Both the position numbers and the translations under genes were made by a program. From the NCBI RefSeq assembly GCF_003018255.1, contig NZ_CP027440.1: a DNA stretch of 64,000 nt. The stretch is one strand, 5' to 3'. Shown here in pieces: positions 3,919 through 47,150 of the stretch. Source of the stretch: Escherichia coli (GTDB taxonomy: Bacteria; Pseudomonadota; Gammaproteobacteria; Enterobacterales; Enterobacteriaceae). Under the pieces are notes generated by a model, which made no database searches, was not told the DNA's origin, and was given only the letters and a program-made list of their open reading frames with translations. Position 1 is the stretch's first letter, and every line of letters starts with the position of its first letter.

Positions 3919-4638
3919 GTGAATGTCAATTTCTTTGTCACCTGTATTGGTGACGCCCTGAAATCAAGAATGGCACGAGACTCCGTGCTGCTACTGGAAA
4001 AACTCGGCTGTCGCGTAAATTTCCCGGAGAAACAGGGATGCTGCGGTCAGCCTGCGATCAATAGTGGTTATATCAAAGAAGCGATTCCAGGGATGAAAAA
4101 TCTGATCGCCGCACTGGAGGATAACGACGATCCCATTATTTCACCGGCTGGCTCTTGCACCTATGCCGTAAAAAGTTACCCGACGTATCTGGCGGATGAA
4201 CCTGAATGGGCATCACGTGCCAAAAAGGTTGCCGCGCGTATGCAGGATCTCACCTCTTTTATTGTTAATAAATTAGGGGTAGTCGATGTAGGTGCCAGTT
4301 TGCAAGGGAGAGCGGTGTATCACCCATCTTGTAGCCTGGCCCGTAAGCTGGGGGTGAAGGACGAGCCACTTACGTTACTGAAAAATGTGCGTGGACTGGA
4401 GTTGTTGACCTTTGCTGAACAGGATACCTGCTGCGGATTTGGCGGCACGTTCTCGGTCAAAATGGCCGAAATATCCGGCGAGATGGTGAAAGAAAAGGTT
4501 GCGCACCTGATGGAAGTCCGCCCTGAGTATTTAATAGGTGCTGACGTGAGTTGCCTGCTGAACATCAGTGGGCGATTACAACGGGAAGGGCAGAAAGTCA
4601 AAGTGATGCATATTGCTGAAGTGCTGATGAGCCGCTGA
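3919..4638 (+). CDS. ykgE: cysteine-rich (CCG) domain protein, LutA-like subunit
   Basis: 239-aa ORF with GTG start; repeated CxxCC/CCG motifs; first gene of ykgEFG. Confidence 0.85.
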   Translation: MNVNFFVTCIGDALKSRMARDSVLLLEKLGCRVNFPEKQGCCGQPAINSGYIKEAIPGMKNLIAALEDNDDPIISPAGSCTYAVKSYPTYLADEPEWASRAKKVAARMQDLTSFIVNKLGVVDVGASLQGRAVYHPSCSLARKLGVKDEPLTLLKNVRGLELLTFAEQDTCCGFGGTFSVKMAEISGEMVKEKVAHLMEVRPEYLIGADVSCLLNISGRLQREGQKVKVMHIAEVLMSR

Positions 4639-7854: not shown

Positions 7855-10179
7855 TTACCAGGTCACATTGATACCAACTACACCCTGTAGCGGATTCTCA
7901 ATGTCGTCACCTTTGGTGTAGTCAAGGCTTGCATATGCTCCCATGTTTTTGGTGATATCAGCCTGTACACCTGCACCCACGCGGAATGCTGCACCGTCAA
8001 TGCTGGCATTGACAGACTCATCACCCAGACGGACTTTGTTGCCATCAGAGAATTCGTTCAGTGCGGCTAGATTCAGATAAGGTTTAACGGTCGCGTTGCC
8101 CACAGCGAAGTCATAACCCACGCGCGTACCGGCCTCACCCAGCACAGAGTTATAGCTGTCAGAATGAACGTCCACGCCGTTGAGTTGATAATCCACACCT
8201 TCCAGAGTCAGAGCAGACAGTTTGGCATATGGCTGAATAAACAGGCCATTACCGTCTTTCCATGTGTAACCGCCTTTAACCATCGCACCAAAACCATTGG
8301 TGTTAAAGTCAGCTTTGATGGTACCGCCACCATTCATCAGGCGAACATCTGCCGTGTTGCTGTAGTGACCAAACTGTGCAGCAGTATCAATGAAGATACC
8401 GTTGTTATACTGGCGGCTCAGGTAAGCGTGGAAGCTGTAACCTTCAGTGTCACCTTTGCTCTGCATGGTACTCATGTCACCTTTCGCAGAAGACATCGCC
8501 ACACCGGCCAGCCAGCTACCATCTTCAGTTATGAAGCGGGTATCACCACCCAGCATTACACCATTTACATCCAGGTCATAGGATGCATTTCCCGCGGTGG
8601 TATGTTTCTGTTTACCGCCAAAGTACTGAATCCATACGCCGCCCTTGTCATTTTCGCTCAGACGGACAGCATCCTGACGGGCGGAGAGCGTGTCAGCCTG
8701 CAGATTAGCAACGTTAGCCGGAGCAGCTGCCATTGCCTGAATCACGGAGCTGGCGTTGGATGCTTTATGCGTGTTTTTTACGAAATAAAAGTTACCATCA
8801 GCTCCCTGTGTCAGGTCATATTGATACAGACCACCTTCCGTTGTGCCTGTGGCTTTTAGAGTGCTGTCTTTGCCGGTAGAAATAAATGCCGTTTGTTCAT
8901 TGATAAGATCCAATGAACCCGCACTGTAAACACGCAAGTCACCGCTCGCTTTTCCGCTGATATCCAGAGTGTTTTCAGAAGAGGCATCAACAATCAGAGT
9001 GCCGTTTTGAGAAACAAACGTGCCAGTATTGACTGTAGCCTTCGTGATATTTACCGTACTGTCTTTTACTGCCAGAGCATCAACAGTTGAGGAACCCGTA
9101 ACATTCCAGACAGACCCGTTTTGCAGAGATACGTTGGCATCTCCTGCCCCTGAAACTTTGCCTTTCCAGACTGAACTATCGGAAAGATTTATATCCAGAT
9201 TACTACCCGCTTTATCGCCGCTATTGAAGGTATAAGCATTACCTTCCCAGTAAGAGCGGGCAACGTTCATGTTTACATTTGTTGTGGTACCGACTGAATT
9301 CTCGCTTTCAGAAAGGGCCAGGATATCAGAGTAGATGGTTGAATCAGCAACAGACAAATTTAAATTTTGCGTTGCTGAACCTGCGCCTTGTGCCGAAGCA
9401 GAGGCATAAATTGTTTGTTTATTATTAGCCGCCCCAATTACTGAGCCATCCTTAATATTCAGGTTGACTGTATGAGTTCCCGTATTATTCCCGGCAATAA
9501 CTATTGCTTCAATCCGACCATTAATAATATTTGAGCCAGCAAGGGTAATGTTGTCGGTTGCATCACCGTTAAAACTATTCAATAAGCTACCCTTTTGAGC
9601 AAAAATTGCCGTGGAGGCGTTGCTGGAACTCTTATTACCTTGAGCATTTATGGTTGTGCCATTAAGCGTGACATTATTTCCCTGGGCCCCTTCCAGAGAT
9701 ATCCCTGTCGCACTACCTTTTTCATTTTTTGCAACGAAATTACCGCCATTAACAACAACATCGCCAGTTGAATCAATGACCATTGCAGTCCGGGCATAGG
9801 TGCCTTCACCTTGAGCTGTGATGGTGGAGCCTGTAGCATTAATCACAACATTTTTGTCACCGCTAACTTTTACACCTTTAACGAATTCTTTATCTGCCGT
9901 TGATTCAGCAGTAATATCATGACCACCAAAAGTAACATTAAGGTCTTTATCTTCCGCATTAATTGTTGCGGCTGTAATCTGTGTAGTACCACTAATAACA
10001 ACATCTTGTTCCAGAGTTGTCTTATCTTTATCCAATGTAACCGGTGTAGTTGATACCGCGTTATCAGCAGCGAATGCTGGTGCAGAAAGAGCCATAACAA
10101 TAGCTGTTGCTAATGCGCTGCGGTAAAATGCCTTACTGTTTTTCATGAAGAAATTCTCCATTCTGGTAACTAATTTCAA
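7855..10179 (-). CDS. AIDA-I-type (type Va) autotransporter adhesin, UpaB/UpaE-like
   Basis: 774-aa ORF; N-terminal signal peptide (ALATAIVMALSAPAFA), long Gly/Thr/Asn/Ser-rich repetitive passenger typical of beta-helix adhesins, C-terminal beta-barrel ending in aromatic residue (GINVTW). Start could be an internal Met (MKNSKAF). Confidence 0.8.
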   Translation of the reverse strand: MKLVTRMENFFMKNSKAFYRSALATAIVMALSAPAFAADNAVSTTPVTLDKDKTTLEQDVVISGTTQITAATINAEDKDLNVTFGGHDITAESTADKEFVKGVKVSGDKNVVINATGSTITAQGEGTYARTAMVIDSTGDVVVNGGNFVAKNEKGSATGISLEGAQGNNVTLNGTTINAQGNKSSSNASTAIFAQKGSLLNSFNGDATDNITLAGSNIINGRIEAIVIAGNNTGTHTVNLNIKDGSVIGAANNKQTIYASASAQGAGSATQNLNLSVADSTIYSDILALSESENSVGTTTNVNMNVARSYWEGNAYTFNSGDKAGSNLDINLSDSSVWKGKVSGAGDANVSLQNGSVWNVTGSSTVDALAVKDSTVNITKATVNTGTFVSQNGTLIVDASSENTLDISGKASGDLRVYSAGSLDLINEQTAFISTGKDSTLKATGTTEGGLYQYDLTQGADGNFYFVKNTHKASNASSVIQAMAAAPANVANLQADTLSARQDAVRLSENDKGGVWIQYFGGKQKHTTAGNASYDLDVNGVMLGGDTRFITEDGSWLAGVAMSSAKGDMSTMQSKGDTEGYSFHAYLSRQYNNGIFIDTAAQFGHYSNTADVRLMNGGGTIKADFNTNGFGAMVKGGYTWKDGNGLFIQPYAKLSALTLEGVDYQLNGVDVHSDSYNSVLGEAGTRVGYDFAVGNATVKPYLNLAALNEFSDGNKVRLGDESVNASIDGAAFRVGAGVQADITKNMGAYASLDYTKGDDIENPLQGVVGINVTW

Positions 10180-29428: not shown

Positions 29429-30811
29429 ATGAAAGAAAACAATAGCCGCCGTGAGTTTCTGAGCCAGAGCGGTAAGATGGTCACCGCCGCCGCGCTGTTT
29501 GGTACCTCTGTGCCGCTCGCCCATGCGGCAGTCTCTGGCACAATCCATTGCGACGCGAATAACACCATGAAAATCACTGACCCGCACTACTATCTCGACA
29601 ACGTGTTGCTGGAAACCGGTTTTGACTACGAAAATGGCGTGGCGGTGCAGACCCGCACGGCGCGCCAGACTGTGGAAATTCAGAACGGCAAAATTGTTGC
29701 CCTGCGCGAGAACAATCAGCATCCGGACGCCACGCTGCCGCACTATGACGCTGGCGGTAAGCTGATGCTGCCCACCACCCGCGACATGCATATTCATCTC
29801 GACAAAACCTTCTATGGCGGGCCGTGGCGCTCGCTCAATCGTCCGGCAGGCACCACCATCCAGGACATGATCAAACTCGAGCAGAAAATGCTGCCGGAGT
29901 TGCAACCGTACACTCAGGAAAGGGCGGAAAAACTGATTGATTTATTGCAGTCGAAAGGCACTACCATTGCCCGCAGCCACTGCAATATCGAACCGGTTTC
30001 CGGCCTGAAAAATCTGCAAAATTTGCAGGCGGTTCTGGCGCGACGTCAGGCGGGCTTCGAGTGTGAAATTGTCGCCTTCCCGCAGCACGGTTTGCTGCTG
30101 TCGAAATCAGAACCCTTAATGCGCGAAGCGATGCAGGCGGGGGCGCATTACGTCGGCGGGCTGGACCCGACCAGTGTTGATGGCGCGATGGAAAAATCCC
30201 TCGACACCATGTTCCAGATTGCGCTGGACTACGACAAAGGCGTCGATATTCACCTGCACGAAACCACTCCGGCAGGCGTGGCAGCCATCAATTATATGGT
30301 TGAAACGGTAGAGAAAACGCCACAGCTGAAGGGCAAGCTGACCATCAGCCACGCCTTCGCGCTGGCAACGCTCAACGAACAACAGGTAGATGAACTGGCG
30401 CACCGGATGGCGGCGCAGCAAATTTCTATCGCCTCGACGGTGCCGATTGGCACGCTACATATGCCGCTCAAACAGTTGCACGACAAAGGCGTAAAAGTGA
30501 TGACTGGCACCGACAGCGTTATCGACCACTGGTCGCCTTACGGCCTGGGCGACATGCTGGAAAAAGCCAATCTGTACGCGCAGCTCTATATTCGCCCTAA
30601 CGAACAGAATTTGTCCCGTTCGCTGTTTTTAGCCACTGGCGATGTATTGCCGCTGAATGAAAAAGGCGAGCGCGTGTGGCCCAAAGCGCAGGATGACGCC
30701 AGTTTTGTGCTGGTGGACGCCTCCTGTTCCGCCGAGGCGGTGGCGCGTATCTCGCCGAGAACGGCGACGTTCCATAAAGGGCAACTGGTGTGGGGGAGTG
30801 TGGCAGGTTGA
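29429..30811 (+). CDS. yahJ: amidohydrolase-superfamily deaminase with twin-arginine (Tat) signal peptide
   Basis: 460-aa ORF; N-terminus SRREFLSQSGKMVTAAALFGTSVPLAHA fits the Tat consensus; metal-binding HxH motif (HIHLD). Confidence 0.85.
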   Translation: MKENNSRREFLSQSGKMVTAAALFGTSVPLAHAAVSGTIHCDANNTMKITDPHYYLDNVLLETGFDYENGVAVQTRTARQTVEIQNGKIVALRENNQHPDATLPHYDAGGKLMLPTTRDMHIHLDKTFYGGPWRSLNRPAGTTIQDMIKLEQKMLPELQPYTQERAEKLIDLLQSKGTTIARSHCNIEPVSGLKNLQNLQAVLARRQAGFECEIVAFPQHGLLLSKSEPLMREAMQAGAHYVGGLDPTSVDGAMEKSLDTMFQIALDYDKGVDIHLHETTPAGVAAINYMVETVEKTPQLKGKLTISHAFALATLNEQQVDELAHRMAAQQISIASTVPIGTLHMPLKQLHDKGVKVMTGTDSVIDHWSPYGLGDMLEKANLYAQLYIRPNEQNLSRSLFLATGDVLPLNEKGERVWPKAQDDASFVLVDASCSAEAVARISPRTATFHKGQLVWGSVAG

Positions 30812-31109
30812 TACGCATTTGAAACGCCTGCAACGGTGAACAGTAATATATTTAAGCCCCAGGGAGTGGGGCGACAATGGTTTGCTAATGAATGATCCTG
30901 AACTTTATAATCTCCAGGCATAATTTCCAGGGGATTATTTGAGAGAAATACACAAAAGTGAGTTTTAACAAAGGTATTTATCAAGCCATAAATGTGACCT
31001 GCTTCGGATAAAAAAGATTAAGTATCGAAAAACCAATGATCCTCTTGCTGATGGTTATCAACAGTAATTAAGATGTGATTTGTTTTTCCGTAATCGCGAA
31101 AATATTGCC

Positions 31110-31520
31110 ATGACCATAAAAGAAAAAATCTCACAAAAATATCCCCATGCTTCCTTTTGTACTTTTGGCGATTCAGCAGCGTTGGCCGATCACCTCGCAA
31201 CGTTGATTGCGACTGGTGTTAAAACAGCTTCCTGTGGTTCGCTGGCGGGATGTATTGAAGACAACGCATTTCCGCTGATTGGTGAGTATAAGATTGTAGA
31301 AAATAGCCGTGGTGAGCCTGTCTGTGTTATCAGAGTGATTGGCCTGCATTTACTGCGCTTTTCTGATGTCTCCGCGGAGCTTGCCCGTAAGGAAGGTGAA
31401 GGTAACCTCAGTCTTGAATATTGGCGTAATGAACACCGTCGTTTTTTCCAGGCAGAAGGATGCTATTCACCCGAAATGGACGTTATCTTTGAAGAATATG
31501 CCCTTATTGACGTTGTGTAG
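31110..31520 (+). CDS. small PUA/ASCH-like domain protein (putative)
   Basis: ORF 31080..31520 (TTG); ATG at 31110 gives 136 aa; G-x-K-T motif (GVKTASCGS) reminiscent of ASCH domains; assignment tentative. Confidence 0.45.
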   Translation: MTIKEKISQKYPHASFCTFGDSAALADHLATLIATGVKTASCGSLAGCIEDNAFPLIGEYKIVENSRGEPVCVIRVIGLHLLRFSDVSAELARKEGEGNLSLEYWRNEHRRFFQAEGCYSPEMDVIFEEYALIDVV

Positions 31521-31770
31521 ATAACTATTTTTCTACGCGAAATAAGCTCTCAAACATAAAGTATCGCTAATTTTGTTTATTTTGCTATTTTTTACGTGAT
31601 GATTGTCACACTTATTGTTACTGCCCGTTTTGTCCATATTTATAACCAAATTTTTAATAGCTGCCTGAAATAGGGCTGTTTATTCTGCATAAAAATATTC
31701 GAAAATTCTTATTCTCTCCAGCGCGCTAATTTGGGCGAACACTTCCTGACTACCCTGCAATGAGGCTGAA

Positions 31771-32757
31771 ATGATGAATAAACGTTTTGTTATCAATATG
31801 GTGTCTTCGCTGTTATTAGGCGCTGCGCTAATTTCTGCGCCGCTCCAGGCAGCGGAAAAAGTCGTGGTGAATATCTCTAAAGTCGATGGTATGCCGTGGT
31901 TTAATCGCATGGGCGAAGGTGTGGTTGAGGCGGGTAAAGCCTTTGGTGTTAATGCGTCACAGGTGGGGCCTTCAAGTACTGATGCTCCGCAACAGGTTAA
32001 AATTATTGAGGATTTAATCGCCCGTAAGGTTAATGCAATTACAATTGTGCCAAACGATGCCAACGTGCTGGAACCGGTATTCAAAAAAGCGCGAGATGCC
32101 GGAATTGTGGTTCTGACCAACGAATCCCCCGGTCAGCCAAGTGCTAACTGGGATATCGAAATCATTGATAACGAAAAATTTGCCGCTGAATATGTTGAAC
32201 ATATGGCGAAACGCATGGGTGGCAAGGGCGGCTATGTGATTTACGTGGGTAGTTTGACCGTGCCGCAGCATAACTTATGGGCTGACTTGCTGGTGAAATA
32301 CCAGAAAGAGCATTACCCGGATATGCATGAAGTTACCCGCCGCATGCCGGTTGCCGAGAGTGTGGATGACTCACGTCGTACCACACTGGACCTGATGAAA
32401 ACCTATCCTGACTTGAAAGCGGTTGTCTCCTTTGGTTCAAACGGTCCGATTGGCGCGGGACGTGCAGTGAAAGAGAAACGGGCGAAAAATAAAGTCGCAG
32501 TCTATGGCATGATGATCCCTTCACAGGCGGCATCACTGATTAAAAGTGGTGATATCACCGAAGGGATTACTTACGATCCGGCCTCTGCAGGTTACGCACT
32601 CGCGGCCGTCGCCAGCACGTTGCTGAAGGGTGAAGAGATCAAACCTGGATTAGAAATGCAGAATCTCGGTAAGGCCGACGTAGATATGGATAAGCGAATT
32701 ATCCGTTTCCATAAGGTATTACTGGTCAACAAAGACAATATCGACTCACTTTATTAA
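31771..32757 (+). CDS. periplasmic sugar-binding protein of a CUT2 ABC transporter (LsrB/RbsB-like)
   Basis: 328-aa ORF with Sec signal peptide (MMNKRFVINMVSSLLLGAALISAPLQAAEK); type I periplasmic binding-protein fold; C-terminus LLVNKDNIDSLY resembles LsrB-type proteins. Confidence 0.8.
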   Translation: MMNKRFVINMVSSLLLGAALISAPLQAAEKVVVNISKVDGMPWFNRMGEGVVEAGKAFGVNASQVGPSSTDAPQQVKIIEDLIARKVNAITIVPNDANVLEPVFKKARDAGIVVLTNESPGQPSANWDIEIIDNEKFAAEYVEHMAKRMGGKGGYVIYVGSLTVPQHNLWADLLVKYQKEHYPDMHEVTRRMPVAESVDDSRRTTLDLMKTYPDLKAVVSFGSNGPIGAGRAVKEKRAKNKVAVYGMMIPSQAASLIKSGDITEGITYDPASAGYALAAVASTLLKGEEIKPGLEMQNLGKADVDMDKRIIRFHKVLLVNKDNIDSLY

Positions 32758-32767
32758 TCCATTTCTT

Positions 32768-32792
32768 CGGGGCGAAAGCCCCGATTCTTATT
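32768..32792 (+). terminator. GNRA-loop hairpin plus U-tract between binding-protein and ATPase genes (candidate intra-operon attenuator)
   Basis: CGGGGC-GAAA-GCCCCG followed by ATTCTTATT. Confidence 0.5.
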
Positions 32793-32805
32793 GCCAGGGG
32801 ATGCT

Positions 32806-34290
32806 ATGGAAACCTTCCTTTCCCTTCGTCATATCAACAAAACGTTTCATGCCACGCGAGCGCTGCGCGATGTTTCTCTCGACTTTATGTCGGGTGAGGT
32901 GCACTGCCTTGCCGGGCAAAACGGCTGTGGTAAATCGACGTTGATTAAAATTATGTCCGGTGTTTATCGCCCGGATGAGGGGGCGGAAATTACGCTTGGT
33001 GGGAAAAACTGGTCAAAGCTGACACCCGCCGCTTCGGTGGCGCAGGGGATTCAGGTGATTTATCAGGACCTCTCTTTATTTCCTAACCTGAGTGTCTGGG
33101 AGAATATCGCCGTGAATCACTATCACCACGGTCTGTTTGTTAACCGCCGTCGTCTGCGTGAGGTGGCGCAGGCGGCAATGACCAGTATTAACGTCACATT
33201 GCCACTGGATACGCTCGTTTCTGAGCTTTCAATTGCCCGCTGTCAGCTGGTGGCAATTTGCCGTGCACTGGCGCAGGACGCACGGTTGATCGTGATGGAT
33301 GAACCAACCGCTTCGCTGACCCATCAGGAAGTGCAAGGGTTATTACAGGTGGTGCATCAATTGCGGGAACGCGGGATCTGCGTGGTCTTCGTCAGTCATC
33401 GTCTGGAAGAAGTGATGGAAGTTTCCGACCGTATTTCAGTGCTGAAAGATGGTGAGCTGGTCGGGACCTTTCCGGCCGCAGAGATGACCACAAAACAACT
33501 CAGTTTTCTGATGACCGGCCAGGAGTTCGAATATCAGGTACGAGAGTTGTGGCAGGGAAAATCCAGCACCCCGGTGCTGGAGGTGCGTAATTTAAGTCGT
33601 CATGGGGAATATCAAAATATTAACTTGCGGGTGGAAGCGGGCGAAGTGGTGTCGATTGTTGGCCTGCTTGGTGCGGGGCGCACGGAATTATGTCTGAGTC
33701 TGTTTGGTATGACCCGACCGGATGCTGGTGAGATCCTCATCAACGGTCAGCCGGTTACACTGCATAGTAACCAGGACGCCATCCGCCACGGTATTGGTTA
33801 TGTTTCGGAAGATCGCATGTCGCGCGGTTTGGTGATGGCGCAATCTATTGAAGACAACATCATTAGCACTGTTTTTCACAAGGTAAAAGATCGCTTCGGC
33901 TTTCTGAGTGAAGCTAAAGTGCGTGACCTGGTGGACAGGCTAATCAAGGCATTGACCATCAAAGTCTCTGACCCACATCTCCCGGTGAATACGCTTTCCG
34001 GGGGTAACGCGCAGCGAGTATCGATCGCCAAATGGCTGGCGATTGGGCCACGACTGTTGATTCTCGATAGCCCGACTGTCGGTGTTGATATCGCCAACAA
34101 AGCAGGAATATACGGCATTATCAGCGATCTGGCGGCTCATGGCATTGCGGTATTGATGATCTGCGATGAAATTGAAGAAGCGTGGTATCAAAGCCACCGG
34201 ATTTTGGTAATGCAAAAAGGTCAGATCACCCATAGCTTCCTGCCTGACAGCAGTTCTCAGGCCAGGATTGCGGAGGTGGTAAATGGCTGA
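32806..34290 (+). CDS. sugar ABC transporter ATP-binding protein with duplicated ABC domains (RbsA-like)
   Basis: ORF 32791..34290; ATG at 32806; Walker A GQNGCGKST in the first half and degenerate GLLGAGRTE in the second half; LSGG signatures. Confidence 0.85.
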   Translation: METFLSLRHINKTFHATRALRDVSLDFMSGEVHCLAGQNGCGKSTLIKIMSGVYRPDEGAEITLGGKNWSKLTPAASVAQGIQVIYQDLSLFPNLSVWENIAVNHYHHGLFVNRRRLREVAQAAMTSINVTLPLDTLVSELSIARCQLVAICRALAQDARLIVMDEPTASLTHQEVQGLLQVVHQLRERGICVVFVSHRLEEVMEVSDRISVLKDGELVGTFPAAEMTTKQLSFLMTGQEFEYQVRELWQGKSSTPVLEVRNLSRHGEYQNINLRVEAGEVVSIVGLLGAGRTELCLSLFGMTRPDAGEILINGQPVTLHSNQDAIRHGIGYVSEDRMSRGLVMAQSIEDNIISTVFHKVKDRFGFLSEAKVRDLVDRLIKALTIKVSDPHLPVNTLSGGNAQRVSIAKWLAIGPRLLILDSPTVGVDIANKAGIYGIISDLAAHGIAVLMICDEIEEAWYQSHRILVMQKGQITHSFLPDSSSQARIAEVVNG

Positions 34291-35254
34291 ACTGAAAAAA
34301 CGCCATGAATTCTGGCTGGCATTACTGATTGTGGTGCTGTTTGTTGGCCTTGCCTGGCGCAGCGACGAGTTTCTGACATTCGGTAATTTGTACGATCTCG
34401 CCAATAACTATGCCATGTTGACTATTCTCGCCTGTGGTTTGTTTGTGGTGTTAATTTCCGGTGGGATTGATATTTCGTTTCCGGCAATGACCATCATTGC
34501 GCAATACGGCATGGTGCTGTTGCTGCAAAAAATTGGTGGCAACTTTGCTGTTGCGTTTGCCCTGGCGGGCGGCATCGGCATTTTACTTGGCTTAATTAAC
34601 GCCTTACTGGTTAATCGCCTACGGGTGCCTTCTATCATCATCACTATCTCGACGCTGAATATTTTCTATGGCCTGCTGTTATGGTTGAGTAAAGGTGTGT
34701 GGCTGTACGACTTTCCGCCGTGGTTTGAGCAGGGGGTTATGTTGTTCAAGTACACCGATGCTGATGGCTATGACTATGGCCTTGGTCTACCGCTGATCGC
34801 CATGATTACGGTGGTGCTGCTAACAGCGTTTATCATGAATTTCACCAGTGTAGGGCGCAAAATTTATGCCCTTGGCGGGAACCGTGAATCCGCCAGTCGC
34901 ATCGGCTTTAGTGTGCTGAAACTGCAACTTTTCGTCTATGGCTATATGGGATTGATGTCTGGTGCTGCGGGTGTAGTGCAGTCGTGGACGGTGATGACTG
35001 TCGCCCCCGATTCTCTTCTGGGTTATGAGCTGACAGTACTGGCTGCGGTGGTGCTTGGCGGCACTAGTTTGCTCGGCGGGCGCGGCACGTTAACCGGTAC
35101 TTTGCTCGGCGTGGTGTTGTTGGCAGTGATGCAAAACGGGCTAAATTTATTGGGAGTCTCGTCTTACTGGCAAACATTGATCACCGGCATCATCATCGTT
35201 GCCAGCATTAGCGCCACGGCGTGGAGTCAGCATCAGAACCGGAGTCTGCTATGA
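34283..35254 (+). CDS. ABC transporter permease (RbsC/LsrC-like)
   Basis: 323-aa polytopic membrane protein; start overlaps the ATPase stop by 8 nt. Confidence 0.8.
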   Translation: MAELKKRHEFWLALLIVVLFVGLAWRSDEFLTFGNLYDLANNYAMLTILACGLFVVLISGGIDISFPAMTIIAQYGMVLLLQKIGGNFAVAFALAGGIGILLGLINALLVNRLRVPSIIITISTLNIFYGLLLWLSKGVWLYDFPPWFEQGVMLFKYTDADGYDYGLGLPLIAMITVVLLTAFIMNFTSVGRKIYALGGNRESASRIGFSVLKLQLFVYGYMGLMSGAAGVVQSWTVMTVAPDSLLGYELTVLAAVVLGGTSLLGGRGTLTGTLLGVVLLAVMQNGLNLLGVSSYWQTLITGIIIVASISATAWSQHQNRSLL

Positions 35255-36207
35255 AAAAATCGTGGCGTAACAACGTTGAGTTTTACTTGATCGGCCTGCT
35301 GGTGCTAACTGTTGCAGCCTTCAGCATTACTATGCCGGAGATTTTCTGGTCGATAAGTAATTTCCAGTCCGTCGCTTCGCAAATGCCCGTGCTGGGCATT
35401 CTGGCGTTGGCTATGGCGGTGACCATGCTTTGCGGTGGCATTAACTTGTCAATTATAGCCACTGCTAACGCCTGTTCACTGGTGATGGCGTGGGTGGCGA
35501 CTCAGTATCCACCGGGTATTGCTACGGTTGTCGCTACGCTGCTGGCGGGCGCTGGCGCGGCGGTGATAATCGGTTTATGTAACGGCGTATTGATTGCTGG
35601 TATTCGAGTGTCGCCAATTCTTGCAACACTCGGGATGATGACGTTGCTCAAAGGGGTAAATATTCTGGTGACAGGCGGTAGCGCCATTGCCAATTATCCC
35701 TCATGGGTGCTGTGGTTGAATCATGCACAGTGGTTCGGTATTCCGCTACCGATGTGGTTGTTTACCGCAGTGGCGCTGGGGCTGTGGATATTGCTGGAGA
35801 AAACGCCGCTCGGTAAATCCATTTATCTGATTGGTTCTAACGAACGAGCAACACTTTACTCCGGTATTAACACTCGTCGGGTGCTGATATGGGTGTATGT
35901 CATTTCCGCCTTGCTTTGTGCGGTAGCGGCATTTTTGATGATGTCGAAACTCAACTCGGCTAAGGCCTCTTATGGCGAATCGTACTTGCTGGTGTCAATC
36001 CTCGCGGCAGTACTCGGCGGGGTTAATCCGGACGGCGGCAGCGGGCGGATAATTGGTATGGTGCTGGCGCTGTTTCTTCTGCAAATTATTGAAAGCGGCT
36101 TCAATATTCTCGGTATAAGCCCCTACCTGACGATGGCCTTATGGGGAACGTTGCTGCTCTGTTTCATTCAGGCTCGCGGCATGTTAGGGCTGGATCGGGT
36201 GGTTTAA
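35251..36207 (+). CDS. ABC transporter permease (RbsC/LsrD-like)
   Basis: ORF 35221..36207; ATG at 35251 overlaps the upstream stop (ATGA); 318 aa, polytopic. Confidence 0.8.
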   Translation: MKKSWRNNVEFYLIGLLVLTVAAFSITMPEIFWSISNFQSVASQMPVLGILALAMAVTMLCGGINLSIIATANACSLVMAWVATQYPPGIATVVATLLAGAGAAVIIGLCNGVLIAGIRVSPILATLGMMTLLKGVNILVTGGSAIANYPSWVLWLNHAQWFGIPLPMWLFTAVALGLWILLEKTPLGKSIYLIGSNERATLYSGINTRRVLIWVYVISALLCAVAAFLMMSKLNSAKASYGESYLLVSILAAVLGGVNPDGGSGRIIGMVLALFLLQIIESGFNILGISPYLTMALWGTLLLCFIQARGMLGLDRVV

Positions 36208-36293
36208 ATATTGGCTATATTCAATGGACGCGTTTTGCCGCGATGACATATCAGGCATCGCCAAATACACATAGCTAATCAGGAGTAAACACA

Positions 36294-37343
36294 ATGAAGA
36301 TCAAAGCTGTTGGTGCATATTCCGCTAAACAACCACTTGAACCGATGGATATCACCCGGCGTGAACCGCGACCGCATGATGTCAAAATCGAAATCGCTTA
36401 CTGTGGCGTCTGCCATTCCGATCTCCACCAGGTCCGTTCGGAGTGGGCGGGGACGGTTTACCCCTGCGTGCCGGGTCATGAAATTGTGGGGCGCGTGGTA
36501 GCTGTTGGTGATCAGGTAGAAAAATATGCGCCGGGCGATCTGGTTGGTGTCGGCTGCATTGTCGACAGTTGTAAACATTGCGAAGAGTGTGAAGACGGGC
36601 TGGAAAACTACTGTGATCACATGACCGGCACCTATAACTCGCCGACGCCGGACGAACCGGGCCATACTCTGGGCGGCTACTCACAACAGATCGTCGTTCA
36701 TGAGCGATATGTTCTGCGTATTCGTCACCCGCAAGAGCACCTGGCGGCGGTGGCTCCTTTGTTGTGTGCAGGGATCACCACATACTCGCCGCTACGTCAC
36801 TGGCAGGCCGGGCCGGGTAAAAAAGTGGGCGTGGTCGGCATCGGCGGTCTGGGACATATGGGGATCAAGCTGGCCCACGCGATGGGGGCGCATGTGGTGG
36901 CATTTACCACTTCTGAGTCAAAACGCGAAGCGGCAAAAGCCCTGGGGGCCGATGAAGTTGTTAACTCACGCAATGCCGATGAGATGGCGGCTCATCTCAA
37001 GAGTTTCGATTTCATTTTGAATACAGTAGCTGCGCCACATAATCTCGACGATTTTACCACCTTGCTGAAGCGTGATGGCACCATGACGCTGGTTGGTGCG
37101 CCTGCGACACCGCATAAATCGCCGGAAGTTTTCAACCTGATCATGAAACGCCGCGCGATAGCCGGCTCTATGATTGGCGGCATTCCAGAAACACAGGAGA
37201 TGCTCGATTTTTGCGCCGAACATGGCATCGTGGCTGATATAGAGATGATTCGGGCCGATCAAATTAATGAAGCCTATGAGCGAATGCTGCGTGGTGATGT
37301 GAAATATCGTTTTGTTATCGATAATCGCACACTAACAGACTGA
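36294..37343 (+). CDS. yahK: NADPH-dependent aldehyde reductase, Zn-dependent ADH family
   Basis: 349 aa; zinc-ligand motifs GHEIVG and CxxCxxC (CKHCEECEDG), Rossmann GIGGLGHMG. Confidence 0.9.
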   Translation: MKIKAVGAYSAKQPLEPMDITRREPRPHDVKIEIAYCGVCHSDLHQVRSEWAGTVYPCVPGHEIVGRVVAVGDQVEKYAPGDLVGVGCIVDSCKHCEECEDGLENYCDHMTGTYNSPTPDEPGHTLGGYSQQIVVHERYVLRIRHPQEHLAAVAPLLCAGITTYSPLRHWQAGPGKKVGVVGIGGLGHMGIKLAHAMGAHVVAFTTSESKREAAKALGADEVVNSRNADEMAAHLKSFDFILNTVAAPHNLDDFTTLLKRDGTMTLVGAPATPHKSPEVFNLIMKRRAIAGSMIGGIPETQEMLDFCAEHGIVADIEMIRADQINEAYERMLRGDVKYRFVIDNRTLTD

Positions 37344-37778
37344 AAAAATTAATAAACATCCTGTGGTTTAACATATTAACTTCGCTCCACTTAACTTTTT
37401 AGTTAAGGAGAGCGAAATAATATCAAAGTAGTGGTAAACCTATAGCGTAAATTCAGATTGTTAAATTAACTCCACTACTTTACACGTTAGTTATGAGCGA
37501 TTTCTGATAGTGTCTGGTTTAATCAGAGCTTTATTATCTGCGACGTTTATTTTTATTTAATAGAGCCACCTGCAAGTTGTTATTCCACCAGAGAGTGAAT
37601 CGCAAAGCAGGTAATCATTTCATCTGTATATCTGTATGCCAACTGGCATTCCATCTCTTTTTTCGCCGATATTTTGTTGTGATCGGCGACACTTCGCTTA
37701 AAAAAGCATCAGCAGTGGTTTCGCAGCTATGCGGTGTATAAAAAATGATCTCATGCAGATGTTTTGTGAATGTGTGGG

Positions 37779-37806
37779 TTGACATTCATATGAAAAAAAT
37801 CATAAT
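37779..37806 (+). promoter_or_regulatory. near-consensus sigma70 promoter (TTGACA-16-CATAAT), probably yahM promoter
   Basis: TTGACA at 37779-37784, 16-bp spacer, CATAAT at 37801-37806. Confidence 0.5.
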
Positions 37807-37964
37807 TCCATCATGTTTGTGTGGGGTCTTTTCTGTATCTTACGCATCGCACTCAAGCCTGACAGAAAATATGCTGTAAGGCTCATATCAAAAACCGCCA
37901 TTAGCTCATCAGGAAGAGCAGACGACAACCAGGATTGTTGTATGGTACGGGGTTCGAGGCCTCG

Positions 37965-42255: not shown

Positions 42256-42295
42256 CAATCTCGACCCTACAAATGATAACAATGACGAGGATAAT

Positions 42296-43465
42296 ATGAG
42301 CGACACAACGATCCTGCAAAACAGTACCCATGTCATTAAACCGAAAAAATCGGTGGCGCTTTCTGGCGTTCCGGCGGGCAATACGGCGCTCTGCACCGTG
42401 GGTAAAAGCGGCAATGATTTGCATTACCGCGGCTACGACATTCTTGATCTGGCGGAACATTGCGAATTTGAAGAAGTGGCGCATCTGCTGATCCACGGCA
42501 AACTGCCGACCCGTGACGAACTCGCCGCCTACAAAACGAAACTGAAAGCCCTGCGCGGTTTACCGGCTAACGTGCGTACCGTGCTGGAAGCCTTACCGGC
42601 GGCGTCACACCCGATGGATGTTATGCGCACCGGCGTTTCCGCGCTCGGCTGCACGCTGCCAGAAAAAGAGGGGCATACCGTCTCTGGCGCGCGGGATATT
42701 GCCGACAAACTGCTGGCGTCACTTAGCTCGATTCTTCTCTACTGGTATCACTACAGCCACAACGGCGAACGCATTCAGCCGGAAACCGATGACGACTCCA
42801 TCGGCGGTCACTTCCTGCATCTGCTGCACGGCGAAAAGCCGTCGCAAAGCTGGGAAAAGGCGATGCATATTTCGCTGGTGCTGTACGCCGAACACGAGTT
42901 TAACGCCTCCACCTTTACCAGCCGGGTGATTGCGGGCACCGGCTCTGATATGTATTCCGCGATTATTGGCGCGATTGGTGCACTGCGCGGGCCGAAGCAC
43001 GGCGGGGCGAATGAAGTGTCGCTGGAGATCCAGCAACGCTACGAAACGCCGGACGAAGCCGAAGCCGATATCCGCAAGCGGGTGGAAAACAAAGAAGTGG
43101 TCATTGGTTTTGGTCATCCGGTTTATACCATCGCCGACCCGCGTCATCAGGTGATCAAACGTGTGGCGAAGCAGCTCTCGCAGGAAGGCGGCTCGCTGAA
43201 GATGTACAACATCGCCGATCGCCTGGAAACGGTGATGTGGGAGAGCAAAAAGATGTTCCCCAATCTCGACTGGTTCTCCGCTGTTTCCTACAACATGATG
43301 GGCGTTCCCACCGAGATGTTCACCCCACTGTTTGTTATCGCCCGCGTCACCGGCTGGGCGGCGCACATTATCGAACAACGTCAGGACAACAAAATTATCC
43401 GTCCTTCCGCCAATTATGTTGGACCGGAAGACCGCCAGTTTGTCGCGCTGGATAAGCGCCAGTAA
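42296..43465 (+). CDS. prpC: 2-methylcitrate synthase
   Basis: 389 aa; citrate synthase family. Confidence 0.9.
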
Positions 43466-43498
43466 ACCTCTACGAATAACAATAAGGAAACGTACCCA

Positions 43499-44950
43499 AT
43501 GTCAGCTCAAATCAACAACATCCGCCCGGAATTTGATCGTGAAATCGTTGATATCGTCGATTACGTGATGAACTACGAAATCAGCTCCAAAGTAGCCTAC
43601 GACACCGCACATTACTGCCTGCTCGACACGCTCGGCTGCGGTCTTGAAGCTCTCGAATACCCAGCCTGTAAAAAACTGCTGGGGCCAATTGTCCCCGGCA
43701 CCGTCGTACCTAACGGCGTGCGCGTCCCCGGAACTCAGTTCCAGCTCGACCCCGTCCAGGCGGCATTTAACATCGGCGCGATGATCCGTTGGCTCGATTT
43801 CAACGATACCTGGCTGGCGGCGGAGTGGGGGCATCCTTCCGACAACCTCGGCGGCATTCTGGCAACGGCAGACTGGCTTTCGCGCAACGCGGTCGCCAGC
43901 GGCAAAGCGCCGTTGACCATGAAACAGGTGCTGACCGCAATGATCAAAGCCCATGAAATTCAGGGCTGCATCGCGCTGGAAAACTCCTTTAACCGCGTCG
44001 GCCTCGACCACGTTCTGTTAGTGAAAGTGGCTTCCACCGCCGTGGTCGCCGAAATGCTCGGCCTGACCCGCGAGGAAATTCTCAACGCCGTTTCGCTGGC
44101 ATGGGTAGACGGACAGTCGCTGCGCACCTATCGTCATGCACCGAACACCGGCACGCGTAAATCCTGGGCGGCGGGCGATGCCACTTCCCGCGCGGTACGT
44201 CTGGCACTGATGGCGAAAACGGGCGAAATGGGTTACCCGTCAGCCCTGACTGCGCCTGTGTGGGGCTTCTACGACGTCTCCTTCAAAGGTGAATCGTTCC
44301 GCTTCCAGCGCCCGTACGGTTCTTACGTCATGGAAAATGTGCTGTTCAAAATCTCCTTCCCGGCGGAGTTCCACTCCCAGACGGCAGTTGAAGCAGCGAT
44401 GACGCTCTATGAACAGATGCAGGCAGCAGGCAAAACGGCGGCAGATATCGAAAAAGTGACCATTCGCACCCACGAAGCCTGTATTCGCATCATCGACAAA
44501 AAAGGACCGCTCAATAACCCGGCAGACCGCGATCACTGCATTCAGTACATGGTGGCGATCCCGCTGCTATTCGGGCGCTTAACGGCGGCAGATTACGAGG
44601 ACAACGTTGCGCAAGATAAACGCATTGACGCCCTGCGCGAGAAGATCAATTGCTTTGAAGATCCGGCATTTACTGCTGACTACCACGACCCGGAAAAACG
44701 CGCCATCGCCAATGCCATTACCCTTGAGTTCACCGACGGCACACGATTTGAAGAAGTGGTGGTGGAGTACCCAATTGGTCATGCTCGCCGCCGTCAGGAT
44801 GGTATTCCGAAACTGGTCGATAAATTCAAAATCAATCTCGCGCGCCAGTTCCCGACTCGCCAACAGCAGCGCATTCTGGAGGTTTCTCTCGACAGAACTC
44901 GCCTGGAACAGATGCCGGTCAATGAGTATCTCGACCTGTACGTCATTTAA
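43499..44950 (+). CDS. prpD: 2-methylcitrate dehydratase
   Basis: 483 aa; MmgE/PrpD family. Confidence 0.9.
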
Positions 44951-44989
44951 GTAAACGGCGGTAAGGCGTAAGTTCAACAGGAGAGCATT

Positions 44990-46876
44990 ATGTCTTTTAG
45001 CGAATTTTATCAGCGTTCGATTAACGAACCGGAGAAGTTCTGGGCCGAGCAGGCCCGGCGTATTGACTGGCAGACGCCCTTTACGCAAACGCTTGATCAC
45101 AGCAATCCGCCGTTTGCCCGTTGGTTTTGTGAAGGCCGAACCAACTTGTGTCACAACGCTATCGACCGCTGGCTGGAGAAACAGCCAGAGGCGCTGGCGC
45201 TGATTGCCGTCTCTTCGGAAACAGAAGAAGAGCGCACCTTTACCTTTCGTCAGCTGCATGACGAAGTGAACGCGGTGGCCTCAATGTTGCGTTCATTGGG
45301 TGTGCAGCGTGGCGATCGGGTGCTGGTGTATATGCCGATGATTGCCGAAGCACATATTACCCTGCTGGCTTGCGCGCGCATTGGCGCTATTCACTCGGTG
45401 GTGTTTGGGGGATTTGCCTCGCACAGCGTGGCGGCGCGAATTGATGATGCTAAACCGGTGCTGATTGTCTCGGCTGATGCCGGAGCGCGCGGTGGCAAAA
45501 TCATTCCCTATAAAAAATTGCTCGACGATGCGATAAGTCAGGCGCAGCATCAGCCGCGCCACGTTTTACTGGTGGATCGCGGACTGGCGAAAATGGCGCG
45601 CGTCAGCGGGCGGGATGTCGATTTCGCGTCGTTGCGCCATCAACACATCGGCGCGCGGGTGCCGGTGGCATGGCTGGAATCCAACGAAACCTCCTGCATT
45701 CTCTACACCTCCGGCACGACCGGCAAACCTAAAGGTGTGCAGCGTGATGTCGGCGGATATGCGGTGGCGCTGGCGACCTCGATGGACACCATTTTTGGCG
45801 GCAAAGCGGGCGGCGTGTTCTTTTGTGCTTCGGATATCGGCTGGGTGGTAGGGCATTCGTATATCGTTTACGCGCCGCTGCTGGCGGGGATGGCGACTAT
45901 CGTTTACGAAGGATTGCCGACCTGGCCGGACTGCGGCGTGTGGTGGAAAATTGTCGAGAAATATCAGGTTAGCCGCATGTTCTCAGCGCCGACCGCCATT
46001 CGCGTGCTGAAAAAATTCCCTACCGCTGAAATTCGCAAACACGATCTTTCGTCGCTGGAAGTGCTCTATCTGGCTGGAGAACCGCTGGACGAGCCGACCG
46101 CCAGTTGGGTGAGCAATACGCTGGATGTGCCGGTCATCGACAACTACTGGCAGACCGAATCCGGCTGGCCGATTATGGCGATTGCTCGCGGTCTGGATGA
46201 CAGACCGACGCGTCTGGGAAGCCCCGGCGTGCCGATGTATGGCTATAACGTGCAGTTGCTCAATGAAGTCACCGGCGAACCGTGTGGCGTCAATGAGAAA
46301 GGGATGCTGGTAGTGGAGGGGCCATTGCCGCCAGGCTGTATTCAAACCATCTGGGGCGACGACGACCGCTTTGTGAAGACGTACTGGTCGCTGTTTTCCC
46401 GTCCGGTGTACGCCACTTTTGACTGGGGCATCCGCGATGCTGACGGTTATCACTTTATTCTCGGGCGCACTGACGATGTGATTAACGTTGCCGGACATCG
46501 GCTGGGTACGCGTGAGATTGAAGAGAGTATCTCCAGTCATCCGGGCGTTGCCGAAGTGGCGGTGGTTGGGGTGAAAGATGCGCTGAAAGGGCAGGTGGCG
46601 GTGGCGTTTGTCATTCCGAAAGAGAGCGACAGTCTGGAAGACCGTGAGGTGGCGCACTTGCAAGAGAAGGCAATTATGGCGCTGGTAGACAGCCAGATTG
46701 GCAACTTTGGCCGCCCGGCGCACGTCTGGTTTGTCTCGCAATTGCCAAAAACGCGATCCGGAAAAATGCTGCGCCGCACGATCCAGGCGATTTGCGAAGG
46801 ACGCGATCCTGGAGATCTGACGACCATTGATGATCCGGCGTCGTTGGATCAGATCCGCCAGGCGATGGAAGAGTAG
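44990..46876 (+). CDS. prpE: propionyl-CoA synthetase
   Basis: 628 aa; acyl-CoA synthetase AMP-binding motif (YTSGTTGKPKG). Confidence 0.9.
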   Translation: MSFSEFYQRSINEPEKFWAEQARRIDWQTPFTQTLDHSNPPFARWFCEGRTNLCHNAIDRWLEKQPEALALIAVSSETEEERTFTFRQLHDEVNAVASMLRSLGVQRGDRVLVYMPMIAEAHITLLACARIGAIHSVVFGGFASHSVAARIDDAKPVLIVSADAGARGGKIIPYKKLLDDAISQAQHQPRHVLLVDRGLAKMARVSGRDVDFASLRHQHIGARVPVAWLESNETSCILYTSGTTGKPKGVQRDVGGYAVALATSMDTIFGGKAGGVFFCASDIGWVVGHSYIVYAPLLAGMATIVYEGLPTWPDCGVWWKIVEKYQVSRMFSAPTAIRVLKKFPTAEIRKHDLSSLEVLYLAGEPLDEPTASWVSNTLDVPVIDNYWQTESGWPIMAIARGLDDRPTRLGSPGVPMYGYNVQLLNEVTGEPCGVNEKGMLVVEGPLPPGCIQTIWGDDDRFVKTYWSLFSRPVYATFDWGIRDADGYHFILGRTDDVINVAGHRLGTREIEESISSHPGVAEVAVVGVKDALKGQVAVAFVIPKESDSLEDREVAHLQEKAIMALVDSQIGNFGRPAHVWFVSQLPKTRSGKMLRRTIQAICEGRDPGDLTTIDDPASLDQIRQAMEE

Positions 46877-47150
46877 GTCGGATAAGGCGCTCGCGCCGCA
46901 TCCGACACCGTGCGCAGATGCCTGATGCGACGCTGACGCGTCTTATCATGCCTACAGGCCTGAACCGTAGGTCGGATAAGGCGCTCGCGCCGCATCCGAC
47001 ACCGTGCGCAGATGCCTGATGCGACGCTGACGCGTCTTATCATGCCTACAGGCCTGAACCGTAGGTCGGATAAGGCGCTCGCGCCGCATCCGACACCATG
47101 CGCCGATGCCTGATGCGACGCTTACGCGTCTTATCATGCCTACCCACTGT
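46873..47150. repeat. tandem REP/BIME array, 3 units of 94 bp
   Basis: Unit starts at 46873, 46967, 47061 (GTAGGTCGGATAAGGCGCTCGCGCCGCATCCGACA...); yields three spurious minus-strand ORFs beginning MIRRVSVASGI. Confidence 0.9.

Follow-up and report, generated by a model that had tools for sequence, protein, structure and literature searches.

An island between yahJ and yahK of Escherichia coli that matches the published Aau D-ribulose importer

Background

The Aau system of EHEC is a CUT2-family importer encoded by aauABCD (Z0415-Z0419, O-island 17; PMC11127945, PMC12307932), and it has been published as a gut fitness factor in the mouse (Cottam et al., Nat Commun 2024, 2025). Its binding protein, AauA, has a KD of ~2 uM for D-ribulose and ~600 uM for L-arabinose, D-ribulose being bound ~300-fold more tightly by ITC (PMC12307932). 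In the structure deposited for AauA with D-ribulose (PDB 9I1M), the sugar is contacted by residues K37, W43, E118, H167, E196, and S223, and imported D-ribulose is phosphorylated in EHEC by AraB (PMC12307932). L-arabinose alone induces the O157 aau promoter, which is inactive when araC is deleted (PMC11127945), and the published in-vitro growth phenotype of Aau on L-arabinose is weak.

Several related systems have been described. The Rbl system of Citrobacter rodentium (RblABCD-RblK-RblI) shares the ligand-contact residues and CUT2 architecture of Aau and also has D-ribulose as its high-affinity ligand (PMC12307932), but Rbl-type and Aau proteins share just ~60% identity. Downstream of the transporter, Rbl-type loci have genes for an FGGY pentulose kinase and an SIS isomerase of their own, and their inducer is D-ribulose instead of L-arabinose. 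AraFGH, the canonical high-affinity importer of L-arabinose in E. coli, is a further member of the CUT2 family and, as appears to be the case for Aau, is under AraC and CRP control; it has one permease gene, whereas Aau has two. The AI-2 importer LsrACDB and the rhamnose importer RhaSTPQ belong to the same binding-protein fold family and have the same four-gene layout with two permeases. Finally, the Klebsiella pneumoniae locus represented by PDB 3D02 is, like Aau, a stand-alone set of four transporter genes with a CRP/AraC module, although it lies in another chromosomal context without yah genes. The structural-genomics label of that entry, “putative LacI-type regulator”, is misleading.

The DNA considered here is a 64,000-nt stretch of an E. 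coli chromosome (contig NZ_CP027440.1), referred to below as the window. A preliminary description of it had reported an orphan CUT2-type sugar importer of unknown substrate between yahJ and yahK. This block is almost certainly the published aauABCD system, and is therefore already known.

Layout of the island

The island extends from 30812 to 36293, limits that coincide exactly with the stop of yahJ (29429-30811) and the start of yahK (36294-37343). It holds five genes on the plus strand: an ASCH-domain protein gene (31110-31520; 136 aa; Pfam PF04266, E 2.5e-21), aauA for the periplasmic binding protein (31771-32757; 328 aa), aauB for the tandem-domain ABC ATPase (32806-34290; 494 aa), and the permease genes aauC (34283-35254; 323 aa) and aauD (35251-36207; 318 aa). 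Every ORF of the block is present, intact, and free of internal stops, and is preceded by a Shine-Dalgarno sequence. The binding-protein gene, for which inactivating mutations were specifically considered, is among those found intact. aauC overlaps aauB by 8 nt and aauD overlaps aauC by 4 nt, aauA and aauB lie 48 nt apart, and 86 nt separate aauD from yahK. The earlier picture of four translationally coupled genes is borne out by the two overlaps, but it does not hold for the aauA/aauB junction or for the number of genes. It was correct that no regulator, kinase, or catabolic gene lies inside the block, and that a binding protein, a tandem ATPase, and two permeases make up a CUT2-type importer, as NCBIfam and PDB matches show.

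The gap between aauA and aauB contains a GC-rich hairpin detected by a terminator scan (32767-32784, plus strand), with a 7-bp stem and a GAAA loop followed by TTCTTATT. The 63-nt segment that carries it folds at -18.6 kcal/mol, a stability not significantly above that of shuffled sequences (z-score only -1.3). The hairpin may act as a partial terminator or as an mRNA stabilizer, either of which would favor an excess of binding protein, although this role is a guess.

Upstream of aauA, the ASCH ORF and ~550 nt of AT-rich spacer (39.8% GC) occupy positions 30812-31770. The ASCH gene had been missed in the first reading of the sequence. Its product matches PDB 1T62 (E 1e-18) and 3S9X (E 1e-15), and the gene is annotated in both O157 and JNEC-KY177. 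It is absent from all orthologous transporter loci of other genera, and belongs to the E. coli yahJ-yahK island without being a conserved partner of the transporter. A consensus scan placed a candidate sigma-70-like promoter (TTGCTA, 18 nt, TATAAT; 10/12 matches) at 30882-30911 on the plus strand, ~200 nt upstream of the ASCH ORF, in a region where such sites are no more numerous than in shuffles.

Identity of the transporter

AauA of the window is identical to PDB 9I1M at 327 of 328 residues (E 4e-214). The sole difference is at residue 200, which is D here and V in the crystallized O157 protein; because D is the family-wide residue, the substitution is unlikely to affect AauA. All six residues that contact D-ribulose are present, and they are invariant in 77 orthologs. 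The signal peptide probably ends between ...PLQA and AEK, and over the mature protein AauA is ~94% identical to Klebsiella PDB 3D02. A comparison of the binding protein with characterized relatives had been proposed, and its best match is AauA itself. The expected LsrB/RbsB likeness stands as a matter of fold class (LsrB/RhaS/RbsB, by PDB and NCBIfam matches), but the protein fails the LsrB, RhaS, and other equivalog cut-offs. What could not be upheld is the label of an orphan with unknown substrate, since the binding protein is AauA and its published ligand is D-ribulose (PMC12307932).

The remaining subunits have the features of the CUT2 family (TC 3.A.1.2). AauB has two fused nucleotide-binding domains, with a Walker A motif GQNGCGKS at residue 37 and a degenerate one, GLLGAGRT, in the second half; the LSGGNA signature starts at 397, and there are two Walker B motifs. 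Alignments with AraG, XylG, and RbsA run over the whole protein, and the resemblance of AauB to AraG, YtfR, XylG, AlsA, LsrA, and RbsA (E 1e-112 to 1e-127) remains below every equivalog cut-off. The permeases are of the RbsC/AraH type and accompany a binding protein of the RbsB/LsrB/RhaS class, as is typical of the family. None of the subunits reaches the NCBIfam equivalog cut-offs for AraFGH, RbsABC, XylFGH, AlsBAC, YtfQRT-YjfF, or MglBAC. For example, the best NCBIfam match is AraG for the ATPase (425 vs a cut-off of 689) and AraH for one permease (157 vs 378), whereas the binding protein belongs to another subfamily and has RhaS and LsrB as its nearest matches. There, too, both equivalog tests fail (RhaS, 137 vs 342; LsrB, 111 vs 384), and accessory lsr or rha genes are lacking. 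The AI-2, rhamnose, ribose, allose, and xylose binding-protein families were rejected on such scores, all far below their cut-offs.

By comparison, agreement with EHEC O157:H7 Aau is close. The genes, their order, and the chromosomal site are the same, as seen in O157:H7 strain SS NE 1040-1, and AauB, AauC, and AauD are 99-100% identical to the proteins of O157 and JNEC-KY177. The published affinities, crystal structure, AraC dependence, AraB requirement, and mouse-gut fitness were all shown on EHEC proteins that are 99-100% identical to those described here. The host strain itself is not O157; the window is ~99% identical to JNEC-KY177 and carries the hyxR/ipbA island.

Promoter region

The 300-nt promoter region has a mean column identity of 98% with O157 and JNEC-KY177. 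A CRP-like site, CGTGATGATTGTCACA, lies at 31595-31610 on the plus strand, with one mismatch to TGTGA-N6-TCACA. Starting 27 nt after the start of this site is a predicted araI1-like AraC half-site, TGCCCGTTTTGTCCATA (31622-31638, plus strand; two mismatches to TAGC-N7-TCCATA), which is identical in O157; in Pasteurellaceae orthologs, the corresponding site is a perfect consensus. A predicted araI2-like half-site, TAACCAAATTTTTAATA (31643-31659, plus strand), starts 21 nt after the start of the araI1-like one as a direct repeat. It has three mismatches to the I1-type consensus and was recognized through a family consensus, TAgCA..aA.tTAcaTa, found 21 nt downstream of I1. Direct-repeat half-sites of this kind are the established architecture of araI.

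Taken singly, neither motif is enriched in the window, where AraC-type matches number 27 against 44 expected and CRP-type matches three against 1.8 expected. Such single-sequence counts therefore prove nothing, and only the paired, fixed-spacing test across loci is informative. In this test, a CRP site paired with an AraC half-site at an offset of 27-28 nt occurred in 44 of 59 Aau-type loci and in none of 18 Rbl-type loci, with 0.003 expected by chance. Since single motifs are no more frequent than chance, the assignment of the predicted sites upstream of aauA rests on this cross-species conservation. A second CRP/AraC pair, at position 10524 of the window, has weaker matches and odd spacing and was treated as a chance occurrence. 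The aau promoter itself gave no match in the sigma-70 scan, in keeping with a promoter that needs an activator. AraC-mediated induction by L-arabinose would be expected in this strain as well, given conserved sites within a promoter so similar to the tested O157 one.

Under the proposed mechanism, AauA would be exported to the periplasm, where it would bind D-ribulose as the furanose with an affinity in the micromolar range, and L-arabinose ~300 times more weakly, before handing the sugar to the AauC/AauD permease pair, with the tandem ATPase AauB driving transport. Having no regulator of its own, the operon would be switched on by AraC and L-arabinose via the direct-repeat half-sites at 31622-31659, very probably with help from CRP bound 27 nt upstream at 31595-31610, an arrangement like that of the araBAD promoter. 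The incoming D-ribulose would be phosphorylated by L-ribulokinase AraB, encoded, like AraC, outside the window, and enter the pentose phosphate pathway.

The K-12 scar and the distribution of the island

In K-12-like genomes, yahJ and yahK are adjacent; the gene order assumed for K-12 was thus right, and the block is absent from K-12 at this site. In its place, K-12 and Nissle share one 376-bp scar (98% identical between them) that retains the final 48 nt of the ASCH gene and the final 72 nt of aauD. When the K-12-like intergenic region was compared with the window by blastn, two missing segments were delimited. The first (30873-31472) is replaced by 24 nt of unrelated filler. The second (31543-36135) is replaced by 63 nt, and its loss takes away the promoter together with aauA, aauB, aauC, and the greater part of aauD. 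Neither filler has a significant match anywhere in the window. Because both the ASCH gene and aauD have left their 3′ ends in the scar, the K-12 state is best read as the result of deletion. The preliminary description had offered an insertion here or a deletion in K-12, and for K-12 these remnants point to the latter.

Of 5426 complete E. coli genomes, 2803 (52%) carry the scar allele and another 2209 (41%) the island layout between yahJ and yahK. E. coli is therefore close to biallelic at this site.

Orthologous loci

Outside E. coli, the neighbors of the transporter are of a different kind. In 26 loci from other genera, it is adjoined by araC (equivalog 372 bits, cut-off 208), in nine by araB (801 bits, cut-off 428), and in 13 by another FGGY kinase. 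A kinase together with an isomerase is adjacent only in loci at about 60% identity, as in the Rbl type, whereas in the window aauD is followed directly by yahK. A tblastn panel of yahI, yahJ, yahK, and the ASCH gene, run against 80 orthologous loci, found these genes only in E. coli and in none of the ~75 loci outside it. The search for conserved neighbors thus pointed to araC, araB, and FGGY kinases, and to yah genes nowhere beyond E. coli.

Three observations, namely the adjacency of araC or araB in Pasteurellaceae, Providencia, and Budviciaceae, the retention of the CRP, I1, and I2 module, and a D-ribulose-type pocket kept everywhere, lead us to lean slightly toward regarding the Aau family as a long-standing part of the AraC/CRP regulon across gamma-proteobacteria, and not as an EHEC-specific acquisition that “hijacks” the machinery for arabinose. 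In E. coli, it would then predate the main phylogroup split and have been lost through one compound deletion. Text searches of PMC11127945 and PMC12307932 found no mention of the scar, the CRP/AraC module, or the araC neighborhood.

Alternative explanations

The main natural substrate could be L-arabinose, in which case Aau would add a second arabinose transporter to the ara regulon (“accessory arabinose uptake”), with D-ribulose binding a side property. Such a role would agree with the araC and araB neighborhoods, with araFGH-like genes beside some loci, with the CRP and AraC promoter module, and with L-arabinose being the only known inducer (PMC11127945). It is nonetheless rather unlikely, as the ITC preference and the sugar seen in the crystal structure both favor D-ribulose (PMC12307932), the pocket is identical to that of Rbl-type transporters dedicated to D-ribulose, and the growth effect on L-arabinose is weak. 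A far smaller chance is given to an Lsr-like importer of autoinducer-2, a signal that had been listed among the candidate substrates. The RefSeq product name, “autoinducer 2 ABC transporter substrate-binding protein”, and a distant likeness to LsrB structures (E 1e-21 to 1e-24) point that way, but the LsrB equivalog score is less than that for RhaS and far under its cut-off, lsrK, lsrR, lsrF, and lsrG are missing, and it is D-ribulose that the solved structure contains.

Two further readings concern the setting of the genes. It had been proposed that the transporter feeds the cryptic yah cluster (yahD-J, which includes carbamate kinase and amidohydrolase genes) or YahK, an aldehyde reductase. 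Only physical adjacency and a shared strand suggest this. The proposal is very hard to sustain when ~75 loci outside E. coli have the transporter without yah genes, in 52% of E. coli genomes yahJ and yahK are retained with the transporter gone, and the operon has its own predicted AraC and CRP promoter. It is equally improbable that the locus is a decaying, non-working remnant in this strain. Loss from many E. coli genomes, and the originally split annotation of the EDL933 ATPase (Z0416-7; PMC11127945), might suggest decay, but none of the four transporter ORFs is truncated, their products match the functional EHEC proteins at 99-100% identity, and motifs and promoter are intact. A working, arabinose-induced D-ribulose importer remains the preferred reading.

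Significance

The identification removes a false “unknown”, as the island corresponds to a published EHEC gut fitness factor with a known ligand, structure, and regulator. It also shows that the RefSeq name of the binding protein is misleading and could be corrected. The system is harder to describe simply as “horizontally acquired by EHEC” when about half of complete E. coli genomes carry the deletion scar of the K-12 state. Many genera share the AraC/CRP control and the pocket of D-ribulose type, often with an adjoining araC, which suggests that the gating of D-ribulose uptake by arabinose goes back a long way and is no recent innovation of a pathogen.

Gene Content of the yahJ–yahK Interval

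The interval at 30812-36293 is bounded exactly by the stop codon of yahJ on its left flank (29429-30811) and the start codon of yahK on its right (36294-37343). Within it lie five intact genes on the + strand, with no internal stops in any of the five ORFs. Four of them encode an ABC importer comprising a periplasmic binding protein (aauA, 31771-32757), a tandem-domain ATPase (aauB, 32806-34290) and two permeases (aauC, 34283-35254; aauD, 35251-36207). The fifth, which the preliminary description overlooked in counting only the transporter genes, is an ORF of 136 aa at 31110-31520 with an ASCH domain (Pfam PF04266, E 2.5e-21; matches to PDB 1T62 and 3S9X). The set includes no regulator, as had been noted. 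Shine-Dalgarno sequences precede all four transporter genes, and none is obvious for the ASCH ORF. Translational coupling, proposed for the whole quartet, is borne out by the overlaps of aauB/aauC (8 nt) and aauC/aauD (4 nt), but not at aauA/aauB, where a 48-nt gap contains a GC-rich hairpin (32767-32784). AauB has a canonical first Walker A motif, a degenerate second one, as is typical for CUT2 ATPases, and the signature LSGGNA.

The ASCH stretch is AT-rich (39.8% GC, compared with 50.7% in aauABCD and 51% across the window), and the gene may have a separate promoter, a candidate for which lies at 30882-30911. Among the orthologous loci, no linkage of an ASCH gene to the transporter was found outside the E. 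coli island, and the gene is not counted as part of the transport system.

Identity as Aau

When the binding protein was used as query in a PDB sequence search, it matched 9I1M at 327/328 residues and Klebsiella 3D02 at 94%. The former is the binding protein of the EHEC Aau transporter, AauA, crystallized with D-ribulose (PMC12307932). In EHEC, the aau locus is Z0415-Z0419 of O-island 17; L-arabinose is its sole inducer, and deletion of araC abolishes induction. The KD of AauA is 1.98 uM for D-ribulose and 598 uM for L-arabinose, uptake of D-ribulose requires the presence of L-arabinose, and AraB phosphorylates the D-ribulose. Aau confers a fitness gain in the mouse gut and is over-represented in phylogroups B1, E and D (PMC11127945, PMC12307932).

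The window resembles EHEC Aau on each testable point. The six ligand contacts reported in the literature (K37, W43, E118, H167, E196, S223) are all kept, and the single difference from O157 AauA is D200 instead of V200, a position that is D in 58/59 Aau-type orthologs. O157:H7 carries the identical five-gene set at the identical site. Across the 300 nt 5′ of aauA, mean column identity to O157 and strain JNEC-KY177 is 98%, and AauB, AauC and AauD share 99–100% identity with the proteins of both. Since the 9I1M match, ligand contacts, site, promoter and AauB-D identity all agree, the block is, as judged from its sequence, Aau rather than an uncharacterized orphan, and its substrate, described earlier as unknown, has a published counterpart in D-ribulose.

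In NCBIfam, all subunits group with CUT2 sugar importers, in keeping with the class first proposed, yet below the equivalog cut-off of each named system. LsrB (111 versus a cut-off of 384) and RhaS (137 versus 342) were thus rejected, and the RefSeq label “autoinducer 2 ABC transporter substrate-binding protein” (WP_001042107.1, WP_001042108.1) is not supported for aauA because these cut-offs are missed. The name is misleading for a D-ribulose-binding protein, as is the title of PDB 3D02, “putative LacI-type transcriptional regulator”.

Origin of the K-12 Allele

The block is indeed absent from K-12 at this site, as first stated: in the K-12-like strain g62, only 376 nt separate yahJ from yahK, and they include a 75-nt pseudogene annotated “missing N-terminus”. 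Whether this reflects an insertion here or a deletion in K-12 had been left undecided. Aligned to the window, the g62 spacer yields three collinear pieces: 30779-30872; 31473-31542, where the ASCH gene's final 48 nt are followed by 22 nt more; and 36136-36305, which runs from the final 72 nt of aauD through the spacer into the start of yahK. They are separated by fillers of 24 nt (g62 locus L002, 3874-3897) and 63 nt (3968-4030), neither of which matches the window. Since 3′ remnants of both the ASCH gene and aauD persist in the spacer, the K-12 ancestor would have held ASCH-aauABCD and since lost 600 and 4593 nt; insertion is set aside as the origin of the K-12 difference. The ASCH gene is likewise assigned to the E. 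coli island because its 3′ end sits in this scar.

Nissle 1917 (phylogroup B2) has the same scar, at 98% identity. Of 5426 complete E. coli genomes, 2209 (41%) covered 80% or more of the island query, and a further 2803 (52%) covered 80% or more of the scar. The site is therefore nearly biallelic, suggesting that lineages share a single compound deletion allele. In the species-representative genome set, matches above 92% identity came only from E. coli and one evidently mis-binned contig, and we infer that the locus was acquired no earlier than the origin of E. coli and later lost from part of the species.

That contig, SFEK01000152.1 (4.7 kb), is filed as a Bacteroidales metagenome-assembled genome, encodes AauABCD at 99–100% protein identity to E. 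coli, and almost certainly derives from E. coli through mis-binning. A third allele occurs in E. coli SCPM-O-B-8794 (locus L032, 6462-8001), with a gene for a PdeL-like EAL/LuxR protein directly 5′ of aauA. Window homology there starts only at 31421, within the ASCH gene (89% identity), and yahI, yahJ and a full ASCH gene were not found in the 8 kb 5′ of aauA.

Other variation lies elsewhere in the window. The yahK–yahM gap (37344-37964, ~620 nt) lacks yahL, as in JNEC-KY177; K-12-like and O157 genomes have an 816-nt yahL within a ~1470-nt gap. A ~290-nt length difference between 9132-9232 and JNEC-KY177 (L086, 15120-15511) sits in an autotransporter gene adjoining hyxA, hyxR and ipbA (FimX/HyxR island) and may be repeat-number variation. 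At prpC, prpD and prpE (42281-47049), identity to JNEC-KY177 falls from ~99% to 97.3%, which suggests a recombination patch.

Predicted Control by AraC and CRP

Upstream of aauA are a CRP-like site with one mismatch (31595-31610, CGTGATGATTGTCACA), a putative AraC-type half-site, I1, with two mismatches to TAGC-N7-TCCATA (31622-31638, TGCCCGTTTTGTCCATA), starting 27 nt beyond the CRP-site start, and a putative second half-site, I2 (31643-31659), starting 21 nt beyond the I1 start. Taken singly, matches to either motif in the window are not above chance, and a comparative test across loci was therefore applied.

A genome scan gave 80 loci encoding AauA relatives. Aau-type loci (65–92% identity) occur in Klebsiella, Franconibacter, Mangrovibacter, Yersinia, Providencia, Budviciaceae, Pasteurellaceae, Vibrio and Aeromonas. 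The Rbl type, that of the Citrobacter rodentium D-ribulose locus, differs in its ~60% identity and in having its own FGGY pentulose kinase (695 bits) and a small SIS-type protein as neighbors. A CRP-like site followed by an AraC half-site at an offset of 26–29 nt, 5′ of the binding-protein gene, was present in 44/59 Aau-type loci, always at 27 or 28 nt, and in 0/18 Rbl-type loci. Judged by how often the pair occurs in the rest of these loci, chance would give 0.003 pairs per promoter region. An alignment anchored on the half-site yields a family consensus (gTAGC...tTT.TCCATaT.aaTAgCA..aA.tTAcaTa) made up of two direct repeats 21 nt apart, resembling the araI1-araI2 direct repeats of the araBAD promoter, and I1 of the Pasteurellaceae is a perfect consensus. 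This phylogenetic footprint argues strongly for direct control of aau by AraC and CRP, a prediction that fits the published genetics.

Genomic Neighbors and Significance

The earlier suggestion that the transporter serves the yah cluster or yahK is not supported: outside E. coli, no orthologous locus has yahI, yahJ, yahK or the ASCH gene nearby. The recurrent neighbors obtained by clustering of flanking ORFs are an AraC equivalog (286–300 aa; 372 bits, cut-off 208) in 26 loci and ribulokinase AraB (801 bits, cut-off 428) in nine, with another FGGY kinase directly 3′ in 13 Pasteurellaceae loci. In the closest relatives, Klebsiella and Franconibacter, the transporters are four-gene orphans as in E. 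coli, and the CRP/AraC module is kept. None of the six ligand contacts varies among the 77 orthologs, araC-linked and Rbl-type ones included. Because of the araC/araB adjacency, the CRP/AraC module, the invariant contacts and the lack of yah linkage outside E. coli, the predicted functional partners of the transporter are ara genes, not yah genes.

The Aau system is already known, and what is added here is minor: a deletion scar and how common it is, a CRP-I1-I2 module conserved across loci, the position of family members beside ara loci in other genera, and a RefSeq name for AauA that misleads. In text searches of PMC11127945 and PMC12307932, CRP, “Pasteurell-”, remnant and ancestral were not found. 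From the comparison of loci, the pairing of AraC control with a D-ribulose-type pocket seems to go back to the ancestor of the family and would not be an invention of EHEC.
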